Shown here in pieces: positions 6,514 through 20,000 of a stretch of DNA of 20,000 nucleotides. The position numbers and the translations under genes were made by a program. Location of the stretch: positions 58,470-78,469 of the IMG/VR virus record IMGVR_UViG_3300002231_000542; one strand, given 5' to 3'. Position 1 is the first letter of the stretch; every line of letters starts with the position of its first letter. This stretch comes from an uncultured virus (IMG/VR IMGVR_UViG_3300002231_000542) (lineage: Duplodnaviria > Heunggongvirae > Uroviricota > Caudoviricetes). The notes under the pieces were generated by a model, which saw nothing but the letters and a program-made list of their open reading frames with translations, made no database searches and was not told the origin of the DNA.

Positions 6514-6984
6514 CTATTTAAAAACTTTCCGTAATTCCTGTGCTATTAATTGTTCAAAGTCTACTCTATCAACAGCTTTCTTCATAAAACTATGTCTACC
6601 TTCTAGTACTAAACCATATAAAGGGGCTCTAGTAGTCCAACTTTCTTTTCTATCATAAAACTCAGACACCCACGTTCTCTTTTTCTTTGATGATTCTAAT
6701 GGTCGTTTCCTAACATTGACTTGATTCCTATAAGTATTTCTAATAATACCTACCCATGCTTCAATTTCATCTTTTTTACCAATAGTTCTAGGTGATGAAG
6801 TAATCCTGTTTCCCTTTAAGTCACCTGTATCGTTCTTGAAAGCAGTTGTTCGCTTAGCAAACAACTCTGCACTTCTAACACCTTTAAGTAATGCTCTACT
6901 TATAGCTACATTCATCTTCTTCATCATTTTAGATGTAGAATCTATAGAGCTAGTTGTAACTTCGACTTTAAAATCAATTGCCAT
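6514..6984 (-). CDS. Putative neck / head-completion protein (HK97-gp10-like)
   Basis: Basic protein with AKRTTAFKNDTGDLKG...YGLVLEGRHSFMKKAV. Start placed at ATG 6984, which overlaps the methyltransferase TAA, rather than 7011. Confidence 0.6.
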   Translation of the reverse strand: MAIDFKVEVTTSSIDSTSKMMKKMNVAISRALLKGVRSAELFAKRTTAFKNDTGDLKGNRITSSPRTIGKKDEIEAWVGIIRNTYRNQVNVRKRPLESSKKKRTWVSEFYDRKESWTTRAPLYGLVLEGRHSFMKKAVDRVDFEQLIAQELRKVFK

Positions 6985-7574
6985 TACTTTTCCTTTGGAG
7001 TTGCAAAACAAATATACTTATTAGTAGAACCTTTGTCATGAACTATCTTGAAGTACTTATTAATACGTTCCTTCCATTCTTCTATTGAAAATAAACTAAG
7101 ATGTAGTGGGTCATCCCCACCTTTAAAATTATCTTTAAATAGAGCTATCTCTAAATAAACCCCACCTGTACATACCTTACATAACTCTGACAGTACCTTA
7201 TTAACTTTCTCAGGTGGAATATGCTCTAACACATCTACTGAGTAAATAAAATCAAATACTGTTCCTTCTTTAAAGGGTAACTCCCAAAGAGTACCCTGCA
7301 CTAATCTATCACCAAAATTCTCTTCAATATCCGCATCAGCTATTCCAGTAGCTATATCAATACCAGTTACATCAAAACCTTCACGTAACATGTGTACCAA
7401 TGACCTACCTGTACCATATCCTGCGTCTAGCACTGTCTTAGCTCTGATTCTCTTAGCTAACCCAGCTACTTGCTTTATTATATGTAAAGCGGGTGAAAAT
7501 ACCCTATAGGCAGGTGTTTTGTAAATGTCACTGTACTTCTTCTCTTCTTTTAATGCTAATACTTCATCATACAT
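6984..7574 (-). CDS. Class I SAM-dependent methyltransferase
   Basis: Motif I VLDAGYGTG, VTGIDI, and FDFIYSVDVLEHIP. Confidence 0.88.
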   Translation of the reverse strand: MYDEVLALKEEKKYSDIYKTPAYRVFSPALHIIKQVAGLAKRIRAKTVLDAGYGTGRSLVHMLREGFDVTGIDIATGIADADIEENFGDRLVQGTLWELPFKEGTVFDFIYSVDVLEHIPPEKVNKVLSELCKVCTGGVYLEIALFKDNFKGGDDPLHLSLFSIEEWKERINKYFKIVHDKGSTNKYICFATPKEK

Positions 7575-8318
7575 TTATAATATGTCCTTTACATTAATAT
7601 TTTTATAACCATACACTTCCAAAGGGTCAATAATAGAAATTGGAGAGCAGTTGTACAAATGAACATCTGCATCATTATCTCGTACATATCTTCCCCATCC
7701 TCTAAAACCATCTATCATATGATCTAACATATGTTCTTTTTTACCAGCGTTATCATAATAGTTATGATAATGTGTTTTGGTCTTATCTTCACTAAATCTA
7801 CAATCCATCCCAAGTAAATAAATATCTTTAAATCCCAGAGAGATTGCTATTGAGATTGCAAATGTACCACAATTATTATAAGCAAAGTATCCCTTATTTT
7901 TGAAGTCCATTGTAGGGATGTCTACTTTATTTAAAAATGTTGTAGTATCATTATGTTCTTGTTCTAAACAGGCTGAGGGGGCATAAACACCCCCTTCTCC
8001 TGTAAATCCATCTATATCTTTACTAAAACGTTCATAAAAATTGATGTCATAGTAAACCATATACGTGCAGTTAAAATCTCTAACTGCAAGATTACATCCA
8101 AAAGTTACCTCTTCTTCGAGCTTGTATTTGATAGAGCTTTCTTCGGGCGACCTGGCTTCTTCTTCGTTCTTGTAGGAACTAAGAGATGATCCACCTCCAA
8201 TGATGAAGCATCTAATTCTTTCTGCCTCGCTACCAATTCTCGATCCATTTCTTCTAATCTTGCACGTTTCTCTTCGATTGCCTTCTCCGCTTCGTCTAAT
8301 TCCTTGTTCTGAGCCCAC
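7575..8318 (-). CDS. DUF115 / Maf (MptE-like) glycosyltransferase-fold protein
   Basis: RCFIIGGGSSL...TFGCN...YYD...AISLGFKDIYLLGMD...HYH...LYNCSPIS motif series. The GTG start has an AGAGGAG SD 8 nt upstream. Confidence 0.72.
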   Translation of the reverse strand: MGSEQGIRRSGEGNRRETCKIRRNGSRIGSEAERIRCFIIGGGSSLSSYKNEEEARSPEESSIKYKLEEEVTFGCNLAVRDFNCTYMVYYDINFYERFSKDIDGFTGEGGVYAPSACLEQEHNDTTTFLNKVDIPTMDFKNKGYFAYNNCGTFAISIAISLGFKDIYLLGMDCRFSEDKTKTHYHNYYDNAGKKEHMLDHMIDGFRGWGRYVRDNDADVHLYNCSPISIIDPLEVYGYKNINVKDIL

Positions 8319-13620: not shown

Positions 13621-13820
13621 AGCAAATCCTTATACGTCGCCACAAACTCATTTATCTTGTTTACGTAATGATTATAACGATTACCTTCTTCAAGAACTAG
13701 ACGACCTTCACCAGCACTTATCATAAAGTATACTAGGTACTGAAAGTCTTCATTCTCGTCATTGAGACCATACAGAGTGCCATGTTTGAAAGTTACTACA
13801 ACATTACCTGTCTTATTCAA
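13611..13820 (-). CDS. Hypothetical protein between terS and terL
   Basis: 69-aa ORF overlapping both neighbours by a few bases, consistent with translational coupling. Confidence 0.6.
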   Translation of the reverse strand: MNKTGNVVVTFKHGTLYGLNDENEDFQYLVYFMISAGEGRLVLEEGNRYNHYVNKINEFVATYKDLLCL

Positions 13821-14454
13821 TATCTACCACCTTAGCTTGTTTTTGTTTTAACTGGTCATTGACTAATCTAGTCATGATAGTTAATTGTTCTTTAAATTCG
13901 TCCTGCTCTCTGTGTTGAGTGTCTATTGCTGAAGTTATAGTAGTTCTAATATTTTCAGTAGCCTCACCTTTGAGTAACTTCTCAGTTTTGACTAAAGTAG
14001 CTAAGATTTCAGTAGCTTCCTTTAAATTCCTAATAGGCAGGCTCCGTTCATTATTAACCCACTGCATTAAAGAGTCTTTTAGTACCCTTTTCAAGCCTTT
14101 AAGTAAGAAAGCTGATTCCCGTTCTTCCCCAGATAACATTTCTATAACTTTAGCGTACTCCTCTGCTTTCTTTTCTCTATTTTTAATAGATAACTCAGCT
14201 TGCTTCATTACAGCGTTATCACTAATATCCTTTTTAAGTTTATCCCAGCGATGATAGTGGCATTTACATTGAATCTCACCACGTTTCCATTTACCCAAAG
14301 TCAAGGCAATAGGCATTCCTTGTATCTTAGCAATATTATCTACTGAAATACCATCTTGGTACCAGTACTCAAAAGCTCGTTTATGTAAAGCTGTGTCGAG
14401 TTTATTTCCTGAATTTTTTAATTTTCTTTTTCTTACTTTCTTTTTAGTAGACAT
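13813..14454 (-). CDS. terS: Putative terminase small subunit
   Basis: N-terminal HTH-like segment (AFEYWYQDGISVDNIAKIQG...TLGKWKR...WDKLK) and C-terminal EKLLKGEATENI; first gene of the packaging operon. Confidence 0.7.
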   Translation of the reverse strand: MSTKKKVRKRKLKNSGNKLDTALHKRAFEYWYQDGISVDNIAKIQGMPIALTLGKWKRGEIQCKCHYHRWDKLKKDISDNAVMKQAELSIKNREKKAEEYAKVIEMLSGEERESAFLLKGLKRVLKDSLMQWVNNERSLPIRNLKEATEILATLVKTEKLLKGEATENIRTTITSAIDTQHREQDEFKEQLTIMTRLVNDQLKQKQAKVVDIE

Positions 14455-14461
14455 ACTCTAT

Positions 14462-14490
14462 ATAATACCAGATAGTTACCTATATGTCAA
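14462..14490 (-). promoter_or_regulatory. Sigma-70 promoter for terS (probably leaderless transcript)
   Basis: TTGACA (14490-14485), 17-nt spacer, TATTAT (14467-14462) with TG extension; the ATG lies 7 nt after the -10. Confidence 0.7.
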
Positions 14491-14583
14491 GCACTTTATA
14501 TAGTATTTTTAATATATAATGATTTTTGAATACTATTTAAAATAGTTATATTAATTTATTTTATTTTATTTTGCAAATAACAC

Positions 14584-14612
14584 TTGACTTTAATTTTTAT
14601 TTATGTTAGTAT
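14584..14612 (+). promoter_or_regulatory. Sigma-70 promoter for the rightward accessory operon
   Basis: TTGACT (14584-14589), 17-nt spacer, TAGTAT (14607-14612) with TG extension and AT-rich upstream DNA. Confidence 0.65.
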
Positions 14613-14669
14613 GTTTTTACGCTTTATTAAAAAGTGATTTTTATTAATTTTTTTTAAAAGGAGAAAACA

Positions 14670-14975
14670 ATGATAACATCAGGAGAAGTCGCTGGGTTAG
14701 CACGAACACCCTCACCAATACCAAAGAAGTATTGGAAGATGATGAATTTATTAAATAGGGTCAAGACTGACACAGTTAACGCAGGTTACGACCAAATGAA
14801 ACGAATTTCAGTTAAACTGAATTCATCTGAGGACAAAGCCGCTTTCTATTGGAAGCCCAGTGCAGAGGAGGAAAGTCAGTTACTGTTTAATACTTCTATC
14901 AAAATTTGTGAAGCGATTGTCTTCACATGGGTTAAATCATTTAGAATGTTAAGAGATGATTTTAACTTAGTATAG
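14670..14975 (+). CDS. Hypothetical protein
   Basis: 101 aa, strong SD AAAGGAG, first gene after the promoter. Confidence 0.75.
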   Translation: MITSGEVAGLARTPSPIPKKYWKMMNLLNRVKTDTVNAGYDQMKRISVKLNSSEDKAAFYWKPSAEEESQLLFNTSIKICEAIVFTWVKSFRMLRDDFNLV

Positions 14976-15125
14976 TAGAAGTCGTAATTACTACTAATTA
15001 CGAGGGTTAAATATAGCGGGATATTGAACGGTAACTAGTACTAACATGTACATGGCAACGAGAAGATGCCCATATGGGCATCCTCGTAAGCCTCATGTTA
15101 GTAAAACGTAGAGGAGAGTAATGAA

Positions 15126-15341
15126 ATGATAATACCAGATGACACATGGGATGACGTAGCTGATGAAGTAGCTGATAATTTAGGTTGTAGTATAAGTGAT
15201 GTGATAACCATAGATGCTTCTCTTGAGATGATATTATTTATTCTAGGTTTAGAAGTTGAATCAAAGTATGAATGCAGTGAAAGAGCTTTACTGGATTTGG
15301 GTTTCCACCTAAATACTAACATATTCACTGTAACAAGCTAA
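15126..15341 (+). CDS. Hypothetical small protein (possible paralogue-family member)
   Basis: SD GAGGAG; 71 aa; SLEMILFILGLEV motif. Confidence 0.6.
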   Translation: MIIPDDTWDDVADEVADNLGCSISDVITIDASLEMILFILGLEVESKYECSERALLDLGFHLNTNIFTVTS

Positions 15342-15356
15342 TAAGAAGGGAAAATT

Positions 15357-15839
15357 ATGGGAAAATTATCAAATGTACTTGTGAAATGTAGAAAATTAAC
15401 TCAAGATGAGTTAAATCAAGAAATAGTTATAAATAAAATCAATGAAATACAAAAATTAGTTGAAAAAGCTTCAAAAGATACTGGAGAAAAATGGGTTTAT
15501 CCAGTAGAACTATTAAAAACAGTTCCAGAGTTCCTGGTATCACCACTGAAGCACGCAGAGTGTAATCCATTTAGTTTACTAGTTGGAATAGGTATTCCAC
15601 AAGGCTTAAAAGAGCGATTACCTAATAAACAAAGAAAACATGACTATTTTGTCTACTATAATTGGAAAGTAGCCATTCACAAGGCTCTGATTAAAGTGGG
15701 TGGTGTAAGAATAGGTAAAATGAAGGAACATGTTCCTTCATTTAAGCACTACTATTTCCAAGTTATGAAAATCTATGAGAAAGATGGCATTTACGCTAGT
15801 GCTTTCAAAGAATTACCAACAAGAATATGGAGGTTTTAA
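15357..15839 (+). CDS. Hypothetical basic protein
   Basis: 160-aa ORF with SD-like AAGGG, tightly packed in the operon. Confidence 0.75.
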   Translation: MGKLSNVLVKCRKLTQDELNQEIVINKINEIQKLVEKASKDTGEKWVYPVELLKTVPEFLVSPLKHAECNPFSLLVGIGIPQGLKERLPNKQRKHDYFVYYNWKVAIHKALIKVGGVRIGKMKEHVPSFKHYYFQVMKIYEKDGIYASAFKELPTRIWRF

Positions 15840-16088
15840 ATGACAATATCTGCTTTTTGGCGGGTAACATTAGAACTACATAAGATGCATGTAGCAGAAG
15901 ACAGAAATGTAGGTGTATCAGGCTACGGGACTAATGTGGCTGCGTTTAGTAATAGGTTGCTTGTGGAAATACTACCCTTGCTAAATTTAAATGAACTCAC
16001 CCGTTCATGGGCGGTCGAAGCTCAGCTATTAGCTGAATTAAATTTAGACAAAGAAGTATATAGAACCCATTTCTTTGAAATATACTAA
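15840..16088 (+). CDS. Hypothetical small protein (possible paralogue-family member)
   Basis: SD GGAGG; abuts the previous stop codon. Confidence 0.65.
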   Translation: MTISAFWRVTLELHKMHVAEDRNVGVSGYGTNVAAFSNRLLVEILPLLNLNELTRSWAVEAQLLAELNLDKEVYRTHFFEIY

Positions 16089-16099
16089 GGAGAATTAAT

Positions 16100-16372
16100 A
16101 TGGTAGTATTAGGAAGAATACATAATGATAATATTAATGAGCTTACTGCGCATTATCGTACTCATGATAATGAGTTTTACGAGGGCATAGATTTACCAGA
16201 AGTTGTCTTTGTAAGTGTATGGATAATCGCATCTATGTTTAATGTATGTAGTGATAAGTACATAATAACTAAATATAGAGATACAGCTATTATGTTGGGT
16301 ATAGAGGAAGAGTACTTACATCAACCAGACCACCCGATTTATGGTGATACTGGGTATATAAGTTCATTTTAG
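16100..16372 (+). CDS. Hypothetical small protein (possible paralogue-family member)
   Basis: SD AAGGAG; 90 aa. Confidence 0.7.
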   Translation: MVVLGRIHNDNINELTAHYRTHDNEFYEGIDLPEVVFVSVWIIASMFNVCSDKYIITKYRDTAIMLGIEEEYLHQPDHPIYGDTGYISSF

Positions 16373-16542
16373 GATAATACTACAACGCTAGAAGAGGCTT
16401 ACAGCCTATTACTTGACCTATGTGTGCTCACATAGCAGAAGCTAGTAAGTCTCCTTGGATTACTAGTAATAACTGGGTGATGCCTTTTCACAACAATTTA
16501 CCGTTGCTATGGTCAGAATATAGAAGACGAAGAGGAGTAGAT

Positions 16543-16801
16543 ATGTTGGATGATATGACAGTATGTAGAATAATGGAGGTAATAGCTGGTGAGCTTTAGT
16601 GGAAAGGATTATTTGGACACATCACATAGTGAGTATCTATTCATGCTATTTTCTTATGCCACTATGGCTACTTTATTAAGTATAGAGGTACCTCCAAGAT
16701 GGCATACAATGAATTATGATATTAAGTATCTAAAAGATAGATTTCCTGATAGTACGTTTAACGTGCTCAGGGACTTACTTAATTTGGAAGAGGAGCGCTA
16801 A
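16543..16801 (+). CDS. Hypothetical small protein (paralogue family), frameshifted at 16595-16597
   Basis: SD GAGGAG then ATG 16543 (MLDDMTVCRIMEVIAGEL*). Deleting one T joins it to the 16589..16801 frame (SGKDYLD...FSYATMATLLSIEV). Confidence 0.6.
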
Positions 16802-16802
16802 A

Positions 16803-17111
16803 ATGACTTATGAAGCTATTAGTGAGAGAATGGTAAGTTCGGTAGATGATGAGATAGGTCATGAGTTACACGATGAGTTATATTATAAGTCACGTGATAA
16901 GTCAAAATCTTCATATAGGGGTACTGGTTGTGTTTGGTTTAGTAGAGCTACACTATATCATCTACTTAATATAAAACCGTTTATGGAGGAAGTACAAAGG
17001 TACTCACCAGTGTATACCTCTAAGTACATTACTGTAGGTGAAGATTTTGAGGATGATTTTTACGATTTTGTTTTACTAAAAGGAGTTAAAGATGGGTATA
17101 ATTACATATGA
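16803..17111 (+). CDS. Hypothetical small protein (paralogue family)
   Basis: SD GAGGAG; 102 aa; FSRATLYHLLNI motif. Confidence 0.7.
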   Translation: MTYEAISERMVSSVDDEIGHELHDELYYKSRDKSKSSYRGTGCVWFSRATLYHLLNIKPFMEEVQRYSPVYTSKYITVGEDFEDDFYDFVLLKGVKDGYNYI

Positions 17112-17397
17112 TAATATAATTGAAATTAGAAAGACAGTTAGTCATACACTCATAGAGAGTATTGGTTATGATAGCTTCCATTATGATTGGGACAATAGCA
17201 GTACTGCTTCTTCTATAGTGTTCTCTGCTTTTAACATGTTGTTGAGGATGACTAATATAGAAGTAAAAGATAGAGTTATAGGAAACCAAATTAAGTACAC
17301 ACAATATTCAAATGGGACAACAATAGCGACTCCTTTCTTAGTCGACACTAAGCATCCCTCGAATTTTGGTTGTGATATTAGGCACACATTCATCTAG
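17092..17397 (+). CDS. Hypothetical small protein (paralogue family)
   Basis: SD AAGGAG; 101 aa; FSAFNMLLRMTNIEV motif. Confidence 0.7.
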   Translation: MGIITYDNIIEIRKTVSHTLIESIGYDSFHYDWDNSSTASSIVFSAFNMLLRMTNIEVKDRVIGNQIKYTQYSNGTTIATPFLVDTKHPSNFGCDIRHTFI

Positions 17398-17414
17398 AAT
17401 AAGGAGATAAGTAA

Positions 17415-17684
17415 ATGGATATTGATGATATAAAATTTGAAGTTCTGGATAGTATTAGCTTAGAGCTTCTTAAGAAGCAGTACATAGATAGTATGTACTC
17501 AGGGGCTGATGAGTTATTGTACGGTTTTCTGCTTTTAGTGAAGTGTTTAGGACTTAATAACTCTGAAGAAATGTATTCATTTGATGATTTTGATGATTTT
17601 AATGAAGATGTATTACGCATAATGTATGTATTAGATAAAAAACAATCAGGAATTTACTATTTCCCAGGGTATAGAGAGGAATAA
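17415..17684 (+). CDS. Hypothetical small acidic protein (paralogue family)
   Basis: SD AAGGAG; 89 aa; YGFLLLVKCLGL motif. Confidence 0.7.
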   Translation: MDIDDIKFEVLDSISLELLKKQYIDSMYSGADELLYGFLLLVKCLGLNNSEEMYSFDDFDDFNEDVLRIMYVLDKKQSGIYYFPGYREE

Positions 17685-17849
17685 AGACTACCAGAACAAT
17701 TGTACGATAATATACCGGAAAGAGTGAACAAACCCATCTACTATTAACAAAGGCTAATATAAAGACAGATGATAATTTTGACTTATTTCCAATTGACTTT
17801 GATTAAGTAAAAGTATAAGAAACAAAGGAGAAACAAAGGAGAAATTGAA

Positions 17850-19063
<1,214 letters not shown>

Positions 19064-19070
<7 letters not shown>

Positions 19071-19399
19071 AAGAAAACAGCCCATTTATAACTCATCCTA
19101 ATGAGAGATTAACAACCGTAAACTCTAAATATGGGGACATGACTATATCAGAATTTAACCTTCATATATGCGGTCATATCAGGAAAGAACTCTTTCCTGA
19201 TACCTCAGTAATTACTACGTTCATAAATGAAAATACCATAGGTTTCGCTTTCAGGTTACTAACACATGTTTTAGATTTAGATCATTTGAAAACAGATGGT
19301 TGGAGTAAGCTTCTAGAAGATATAGAGATAGATGCTAATTTTGATTTATTTACAGTCTATCCAAGCTTTACCGCCCATCTATCCGATCCCACCACTTAA
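19064..19399 (+). CDS. Hypothetical protein, clear paralogue of 17850..18161
   Basis: SD AAAGGAG; shared motifs as above. Confidence 0.78.
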
Positions 19400-19435
19400 A
19401 TCAGACCCTAACCATTACTTTTAGGCGGTATACAT

Positions 19436-19466
19436 TAGACTCTAGACTCTAGACTCTAGACTCTAG
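19436..19466. repeat. Tandem repeat, 7-bp unit TAGACTC x4.4
   Basis: Read directly from the sequence. Confidence 0.95.
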
Positions 19467-19469
19467 GTA

Positions 19470-19541
19470 CTTAATCCTCATATCCCTTAATCCTCATATC
19501 CCTTAATCCTCATATCCCTTAATCCTCATATCCCTTAATCC
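19470..19541. repeat. Tandem repeat, 16-bp unit CTTAATCCTCATATCC x4.5
   Basis: Read directly; perfect copies start at 19470, 19486, 19502 and 19518. Confidence 0.95.
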
Positions 19542-19606
19542 CTTTGACCTAGCCGCGTAGGCGCTATAGGTCATTGGAAAATGGGGATTTTTGTGTAAGG
19601 GGGACA

Positions 19607-19638
19607 GTGTCCTATATTATATCCATAATATAGGACAC
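19607..19638. repeat. Perfect 14-bp inverted repeat flanked by G- and C-runs
   Basis: GTGTCCTATATTAT-atcc-ATAATATAGGACAC. Confidence 0.9.
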
Positions 19639-19686
19639 ACCCCACCCCCCGCGTCATATGACGCACTCGTATAAATGTAGAGCCTA

Positions 19687-19960
19687 TGCAATAACTGTGC
19701 CAACATTAACGTCAATATATTGACACCTATAAATAACACGACGGTATAACATGGTAGTAATAACACGAGGTACTTACCTCATATAGTATGACTTACATGC
19801 AAGTACTATGCCAAACGTAGTTGGCACAGTTATTGCATAGCAAACTACCATGGTAAAGTAAAGTATTACATGCAAGTACTGTGCCAAACGTAGTAGGCAC
19901 AGTTATTGCATAGCAAACTACCATGGTAAAGTAAAGTATTACATGCAAGTACTGTGCCAA
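19687..19960. promoter_or_regulatory. Cluster of six sigma-54 (RpoN) -24/-12 consensus sites
   Basis: (T/A)GGCA(C/T)-N5-TTGCA at 19687-19703(-), 19798-19814(-), 19821-19837(+), 19871-19887(-), 19894-19910(+) and 19944-19960(-). Confidence 0.75.
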
Positions 19961-19961
19961 A
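19793..19961. repeat. Tandem repeat, 73-bp unit x2.3, each full unit carrying two divergent sigma-54 motifs
   Basis: Units start at 19793, 19866 and 19939; units 1 and 2 differ at only two positions. Confidence 0.92.
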
Positions 19962-20000
19962 ACAAACATGCCCTGAGGCTTACGAGGATGCGATTCTGTG

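Follow-up and report, generated by a model that had tools for sequence, protein, structure and literature searches.

The final 20 kb of a 78,469-base IMG/VR virus contig (hereafter the window; GC 36%) holds six sites of the TGGCAC-N5-TTGCA type in 274 bp of gene-free DNA, and dense arrays of such sigma-54-type sites recur in many viral contigs, with no earlier description found. Judged from their sequence, the six sites fit the -24/-12 elements of sigma-54 rather than a chance repeat, and sigma-54 holoenzyme probably binds them. Among bacterial holoenzymes, only that of sigma-54 binds DNA tightly and must then be set going by an ATP-driven activator. Should phages accumulate its sites deliberately, either part of the phage programme is tied to host physiology through host activators, or the factor is sequestered; in both cases, phage-host control would gain a new layer. 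The element is readily testable, as it consists of only ~300 bp of DNA and the reagents needed, sigma-54 holoenzyme and promiscuous activators, are standard.

Composition of the array and its fit to sigma-54 sites

The six sites had been noticed in a reading of the letters alone (the sequence-only reading), and a pattern search bore out their coordinates and strands. They are of two types, A (TTGGCACAGTTATTGCA) and B (TTGGCACAGTACTTGCA), and from left to right they lie on the strands -, -, +, -, +, -. Site 1 (19687-19703, minus; 26.2 bits in the matrix scan described below) is of the A type and is solitary, lying outside a 73-bp tandem repeat that carries sites 2-6 (19793-19961; 2.3 copies, 97% matches). 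Site 2 (19798-19814, minus; 23.5 bits) is of the B type with the TGGCAT change (TTGGCATAGTACTTGCA), and it stands back to back with site 3 (19821-19837, plus; 27.2 bits), an A-type site directed rightward to the contig end. Site 4 (19871-19887, minus; 23.7 bits) is of the B type and is oriented towards site 3, their -12 ends being 33 bp apart; it also forms a back-to-back pair with site 5 (19894-19910, plus; 18.3 bits), which is of the A type with an AGGCAC change and reads TAGGCAC. Site 6 (19944-19960, minus; 24.1 bits) is again of the B type and faces site 5 across 33 bp, and it has no dyad partner on its right, just as site 1 has none. The duplication and the back-to-back arrangement described in the sequence-only reading are both real, the 6-bp gap within the pairs 2/3 and 4/5 being the distance between the 17-mers.

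The GG-N10-GC spacing is kept in all six sites and the variation falls outside GG and GC, as had been claimed: the exact 16-mer TGGCACNNNNNTTGCA is present in four sites, and the other two have a single change outside these dinucleotides. The differences between copies lie at positions that are degenerate in sigma-54 sites, namely the C/T at position 6, the T/A before GG, and the spacer. Site 1 and the segment 19820-19840 form a 21-nt inverted match that is 100% complementary, and the similarity stops at the site edges. Because the exact A-type 17-mer of site 1 occurs in a context unrelated to the 73-bp repeat, the site itself appears to be the thing that has been kept. A minus-strand ORF that crosses the array (19793-19999) was rejected as a gene, since its translation is an implausible peptide rich in Cys, Tyr and His.

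With one mismatch allowed, TGGCACNNNNNTTGCA has 6 matches in the 20-kb window, whereas 200 dinucleotide-preserving shuffles averaged 0.17 matches and never exceeded 2. A weight matrix was built from 466 distinct sites of other viral arrays, with the contig itself left out, and it scored the six sites at 18.3-27.2 bits (training median, 24.0). Over the whole 78,469-base contig, a loose pattern with one mismatch returned the six array sites and two others, while the matrix at a threshold of ≥12 bits returned the same six and one more. This other strong site, TGGCATACCATTTGCA (contig positions 50297-50318, plus; 20.0 bits), lies antisense within a 756-residue minus-strand ORF. In a spacer scan of the contig, N5 gave 7 matches and the other spacers gave 0-1 each. 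The pattern and matrix scans saw no use of sigma-54 sites upstream of genes elsewhere in the contig.

The positions around the fixed dinucleotides point in the same direction. In the six sites, the T before TGGCA and the purine at position 8 of the extended consensus are present, and position 7 is A, which is also found in the Salmonella glnA, glnK and glmY sites given in the available part of PMC3844500. Among 79 viral loci seeded with the 17-mer, N5 accounted for 189 sites, and each other spacer from 1 to 10 for at most 8. At the positions that the pattern leaves unfixed, 80 distinct non-seed sites had T before TGGCA in 76%, and after TGGCAY they had G in 69% followed by a purine in 85%; at this G position, our own count over 29 ChIP-bound intergenic Salmonella sites in the same part of PMC3844500 was 19 G and 10 A. 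Seven homologous arrays (six distinct) from another phage family have the same alternating layout. In these, 75 of 81 core columns are invariant, compared with 60 of 96 columns in spacers and between sites (Fisher p = 2e-6, in a test that leans slightly towards this result as the sites were defined by the pattern). The consensus, matrix scores, spacer and flank preferences all support the proposed sigma-54-type -24/-12 identity.

Bacterial sigma-54 promoters such as glnA, pspA and the divergent hycA/hypA, as presented in the available part of PMC3844500, have the same -24 GG and -12 GC elements, the same exact 10-bp spacing and the same flank preferences, and the hycA/hypA example there indicates that divergent pairs also occur in bacteria. 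The difference lies in the layout. In bacteria, such promoters occur singly or in pairs ~100 bp apart and drive genes, whereas the phage array has six alternating sites in 274 bp with no visible downstream gene, recognisable enhancer or activator gene. The view of the sequence-only reading that the layout is too crowded and too two-faced for ordinary promoters is supported at the sequence level.

Genes and repeats around the array

The contig is classed as linear and without end repeats in IMG/VR, and its completeness is put at 62% by CheckV. Minus-strand genes span contig positions 1-72,923, and they include genes for a family A polymerase, clamp, clamp loader, gp32-like protein, RecA-like protein, DnaB, ribonucleotide reductase and NAMPT, together with tail, head, portal and large terminase genes. 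A putative small terminase gene is located at 13813-14454 of the window, 5.2 kb from the array. The gap between this terminase operon and the following block of small ORFs (14455-14669) is divergent and contains sigma-70-like promoters in both directions (14462-14612; minus strand, TTGACA-17-TATTAT; plus strand, TTGACT-17-TAGTAT), and a pattern scan of this gap found no site for sigma-54. The block itself (14670-19399, plus) consists of ~17 early-like ORFs, and the array lies just beyond its 3′ end.

None of the 14 small plus-strand ORFs that were sent to PHROGs matched a named family. Two of them (18193-18504 and 18605-18919) matched the 897-position phrog_28604, which is of unknown function; they are two fragments of a decayed alanyl-tRNA synthetase gene, and together they look like a pseudogene within the early-like block. 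The first fragment is 62-71% identical to the N-termini of bacterial alanyl-tRNA synthetase genes from many phyla (80 loci listed), and with this spread among the matches listed the fragment does not point to a particular host. Two other small ORFs, 17850-18161 and 19064-19399, are paralogous to each other (41% identity across 79 residues; E = 5e-14), and the second of these is the last gene before the repeat region.

About 600 gene-free bases follow the small-ORF block, with short repeats, then palindromes, then the array. The tandem repeat search found a 7-bp repeat (TAGACTC, 4.4 copies) and a 16-bp repeat (CTTAATCCTCATATCC, 4.5 copies) at 19436-19541. Three palindromes were located at 19607-19638 (14-nt arms), 19651-19664 (GCGTCATATGACGC) and 19711-19724 (GTCAATATATTGAC), which places them ~100-230 bp upstream of the two rightward sites. 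A CGTCA/TGACG half-site is common to two of the three. No DnaA, IHF or NtrC-like consensus was found, and the sequence of the palindrome at 19711-19724 does not fit a NifA-type TGT-N10-ACA element, for which it had been considered. No Rfam family reached threshold, and the sub-threshold matches were microRNA-model noise only. As single-stranded DNA, the 73-bp repeat region (19793-19961) folds far more strongly than shuffled sequence (z = -5.96).

On its right side, the contig ends 40 bp beyond site 6. The sequence-only reading had stated that no gene adjoins the array; none does within the window, although this partly reflects the proximity of the contig end. GC skew tracks gene direction and nothing in it marks the array.

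In terms of affinity, the phage has no close relative in the phages, viral_contigs or metagenome_contigs collections, in which the best terminase matches were 29-33% identical. The large terminase was closest to those of cultured phages (30-33% identity), among them T5-like Vibrio and Serratia phages, and was at most 29% identical to proteins of viral_contigs and metagenome_contigs; the best matches of the polymerase and capsid were ~30% identical. BLASTN of 19400-20000 against cultured phages gave no match. Two features elsewhere on the minus strand are recorded here. In the head module, the capsid gene is separated from the head-tail genes by a methyltransferase-like ORF and a second ORF whose PHROG match carries the annotation alpha-2,3-sialyltransferase (6984-8318), and three tRNA genes (Leu-CAA, Asn-GTT and Pro-TGG; contig positions 24203-24630) lie in the replication module.

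Similar arrays in other viral contigs and the candidate binding partner

The 79 loci mentioned above came from a scan of viral_contigs with the 17-mer. Two or more TGGCAY-N5-TTGCW sites were present within 600 bp at 30 of these loci and three or more at 18, with a maximum of 14 sites. Similar clusters are widespread in viral contigs: two tandem sites 5-35 bp apart occur at at least 125 viral loci, and three tandem sites at at least 121. The 120 triple-site loci listed have 3-10 sites each, and 50 of them have sites in both orientations. For comparison, tandem pairs were found in 3 of 401 Pseudomonadota genomes, and a third site nearby in none of them. The remark in the sequence-only reading that no phage system of this kind has been characterised agrees with our literature search, in which no account of such arrays in phages turned up. 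The closest report found concerns a single sigma-54-like promoter in Pseudomonas phage YuA (PMC10914365, available part). At least one promoter of YuA depends on the sigma-54 polymerase of its host, as would be the case in the present phage, but YuA has no array: in its 58.7-kb genome, the loose consensus had no exact match and one match with one mismatch.

Sixty-four distinct arrays had both flanking genes visible (4 further arrays that lacked one flank were left out), and they were located in divergent gaps in 32 cases, co-directional gaps in 28 and convergent gaps in 4. In the co-directional gaps, the one-way arrays pointed with the genes in 9 cases and against them in 11, and the remaining 8 arrays were mixed. 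This near-even orientation indicates that orientation-blind docking fits the arrays as well as promoters do. The tightest gaps in other arrays are 8-13 bp between tandem sites and 1-2 bp between face-to-face sites, which is too tight for holoenzyme on every site or for independent promoters.

A large-terminase gene lies within ~3 kb of the array in 12 of 45 lineages. No gene family is common to all array-bearing loci, and the most widespread one is present in 8 of 45 lineages. A GP88 (PF17338) protein of 215-236 residues, which sometimes matches DUF7227 as well, is encoded just downstream of the arrays in 7 of 45 lineages. At loci L189, L195, L197 and L229, the GP88 gene lies ~300-1100 bp downstream, and in one family there is a strong sigma-70-like promoter between the array and the gene.

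Arrays are located within 300 bp of a contig end at 17 of the 80 loci listed, compared with 4.4 expected, an excess that could reflect either assembly breaks at repeats or real termini. In a 36,563-base viral contig rated as 100% complete (G409), all 14 sites lie at the ends (8-174 and 36007-36201), and two of the sites recur at both ends.

Genes for a partner protein were sought in 38 array-bearing viral records that included the present contig, 19 of which are at least 90% complete. The sigma-54 DNA-binding domain was found in none of the 38, and none had a convincing activator domain (PF00158), the best match scoring 26 bits. In a control search, PF00158 matched all 14 reference genomes, archaea included, so the weak matches are generic AAA+ proteins. 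The present contig gave a 15.6-bit match within the clamp-loader gene and no real activator. Since the sites fit sigma-54 and neither its DNA-binding domain nor a convincing activator was found in the 38 records, the binder would most simply be the host's own sigma-54 polymerase.

Possible roles of the array

The reading that we put forward, tentatively, is that the array is a docking cluster at which host sigma-54 polymerase would be held as silent closed complexes and fired in both directions by a host activator. The six sites would be genuine binding sites for the host holoenzyme, and phage DNA, once in the cell, would load it as stable silent closed complexes. The array is situated at the far boundary of the early-like block, which would be driven by the sigma-70-like promoter. 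In the silent state, polymerase would be held at this module boundary; when the host activator is active, four sites would fire antisense into the early block and two would fire forward into the next module. It is this boundary position, with four sites pointing back and two onward, that leads us to read the array as a docking cluster gated by the state of the host. Because no activator ATPase or sigma-54 gene is present in the visible 62% of the genome, firing would need a host enhancer-binding protein. Stacked near-consensus sites would also help a single incoming genome to compete with chromosomal sites for scarce holoenzyme. Of this picture, the fit of the sequences, the spacing rule, the conservation and the lack of partner genes in the phages are observed; binding, firing and purpose are inferences.

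Parts of this reading are supported by published work. According to the available part of PMC4591121, many of the sites bound by sigma-54 holoenzyme are transcriptionally inactive. The inactive or intragenic sites of E. coli and Salmonella described in the available parts of PMC4591121 and PMC3844500 likewise serve no obvious gene, include antisense ones and are evolutionarily conserved; they differ in that they are scattered singly in chromosomal genes, whereas the phage sites are stacked in gene-free DNA. The portion of PMC3844500 at hand also reports that activators devoid of a DNA-binding domain are able to fire any closed complex, and it suggests that additional sites close by may quicken the search for promoters.

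In terms of what firing would produce, the contig runs out 40-150 bp downstream of the rightward sites, and downstream of the four leftward ones lie non-coding repeats and the 3′ end of convergent ORFs. Transcription usually starts ~12 nt past the GC element. For the facing pairs 3/4 and 5/6, the predicted starts overlap by ~12 nt: the six closed complexes could probably all be accommodated, but each member of a pair would be disturbed by the firing of the other. This interference counts against the docking cluster, as do the lack of an enhancer-like consensus, the lack of a visible gene downstream of any site, the very tight packing in other arrays, the near-even orientation of one-way arrays in co-directional gaps, and the lack of sigma-54 sites upstream of genes in the rest of the contig. 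A roadblock function, which had also been suggested, has become less likely because single intragenic sigma-54 sites in E. coli gave no roadblock effect in the available part of PMC4591121.

Another explanation is that the DNA acts as a sponge, whose sites only withdraw sigma-54 or its holoenzyme from the host, transcription being irrelevant. After replication, hundreds to thousands of high-affinity sites would outnumber the chromosomal ones and shut down the host sigma-54 regulon. The near-consensus sequences, the tight packing and the lack of a visible downstream gene are what such a sponge would show, as are the arrays of up to 14 sites within 600 bp, the near-random orientation in co-directional gaps (9 with and 11 against), the lack of a phage activator in the 38 records, and the silent DNA-bound holoenzyme described in the available part of PMC4591121. 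However, six sites on a single incoming genome would titrate little, which would confine any effect to late infection, and the benefit to a lytic phage is not evident. Half of the classified arrays (32 of 64) lie in divergent gaps, a preference for control regions that a pure sponge does not need, and face-to-face pairs separated by 1-2 bp cannot both be filled, so that some sites would be wasted. We consider the sponge unlikely for the present array. It is similarly doubtful that the arrays in general are DNA-encoded traps that soak up sigma-54 or holoenzyme as silent complexes with no phage protein involved, and thereby disarm sigma-54-dependent host responses or park polymerase for later use; if they were, the strategy would be widespread and undescribed, with the present contig as one example.

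The 17-mers and the repeats and palindromes at 19400-19960 might instead be sites for a phage protein, for example origin iterons, a packaging or partition site, or the operators of a dimeric regulator, in which case the likeness to the sigma-54 consensus would be a coincidence. Within 560 bp of gene-free DNA, the array is accompanied by two further tandem repeat families and three palindromes, the pairs 2/3 and 4/5 form 40-bp imperfect dyads, and the strong single-stranded folding (z = -5.96) would fit as well. Packaging sites are also expected near large-terminase genes and at contig ends, where arrays were found in 12 of 45 lineages and in excess (17 of 80 listed, compared with 4.4), respectively. 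The sequence-only reading had named a dimeric phage protein bound to the TGCCAA-N6-TTGGCA dyad as the alternative that could overturn it. This alternative has been weakened rather than removed, because two of the six sites stand alone and nevertheless retain the whole asymmetric 17-mer. In addition, unrelated phages with unrelated neighbouring genes share GG-N10-GC and the flank preferences of bound bacterial sites, which would be unlikely for diverse proteins, and no gene family (maximum, 8 of 45 lineages) accompanies all array loci. Recognition by a phage protein seems improbable to us.

The last explanation considered is an entry or terminal element, in which the array would be close to a physical end of the DNA and a host complex would serve as an anchor, ratchet or pause point when the DNA enters the cell. 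The analogy is with T5. The available part of a preprint (10.1101/866236) places eight DnaA boxes, sites for a host protein, in an untranslated region of repeats at the T5 injection stop, the T5 model being itself a hypothesis. That region is likewise untranslated, rich in repeats and palindromes, and located after small early genes with an array of sites for a host protein; the host factor is DnaA in T5 and would be sigma-54 here, and a distant terminase is all that the two phages have in common. No TTWTNCACA box occurs in the window and TTATCCACA has no match with one mismatch in 19400-20000. None of the T5 pre-early genes A1, A2 and dmp was found among the 14 small ORFs in PHROGs, and the contig has no end repeats. 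In Brizo and JSF10, two cultured Vibrio phages of the T5-like kind, the strong sites number two per genome and lie 3-4 kb apart, which does not make an array. We consider an entry or terminal role very unlikely: it would suit an array that lies 40 bp from the contig end, after early-like small ORFs adjoining terminase genes whose closest cultured relatives include T5-like phages, as well as the enrichment of arrays at contig ends and the position of all 14 sites in G409, but the likeness to T5 is limited to the terminase, with capsid and polymerase affinities elsewhere, no small ORF has a named phage family, DnaA boxes are absent, the T5-like Vibrio phages have only scattered sites, and contig ends may be mere assembly breaks at repeats.

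The sequence-only reading had placed the array at a phage genome end; what the sequence shows there is a contig end. The last 35 bases of the contig had no exact match in metagenome_contigs. Among sequencing runs, part of the stretch is carried by one DNA run, a low-depth microbial mat metagenome (no RNA runs were listed), and one contig of this run extends 117 bases past the end of the window.
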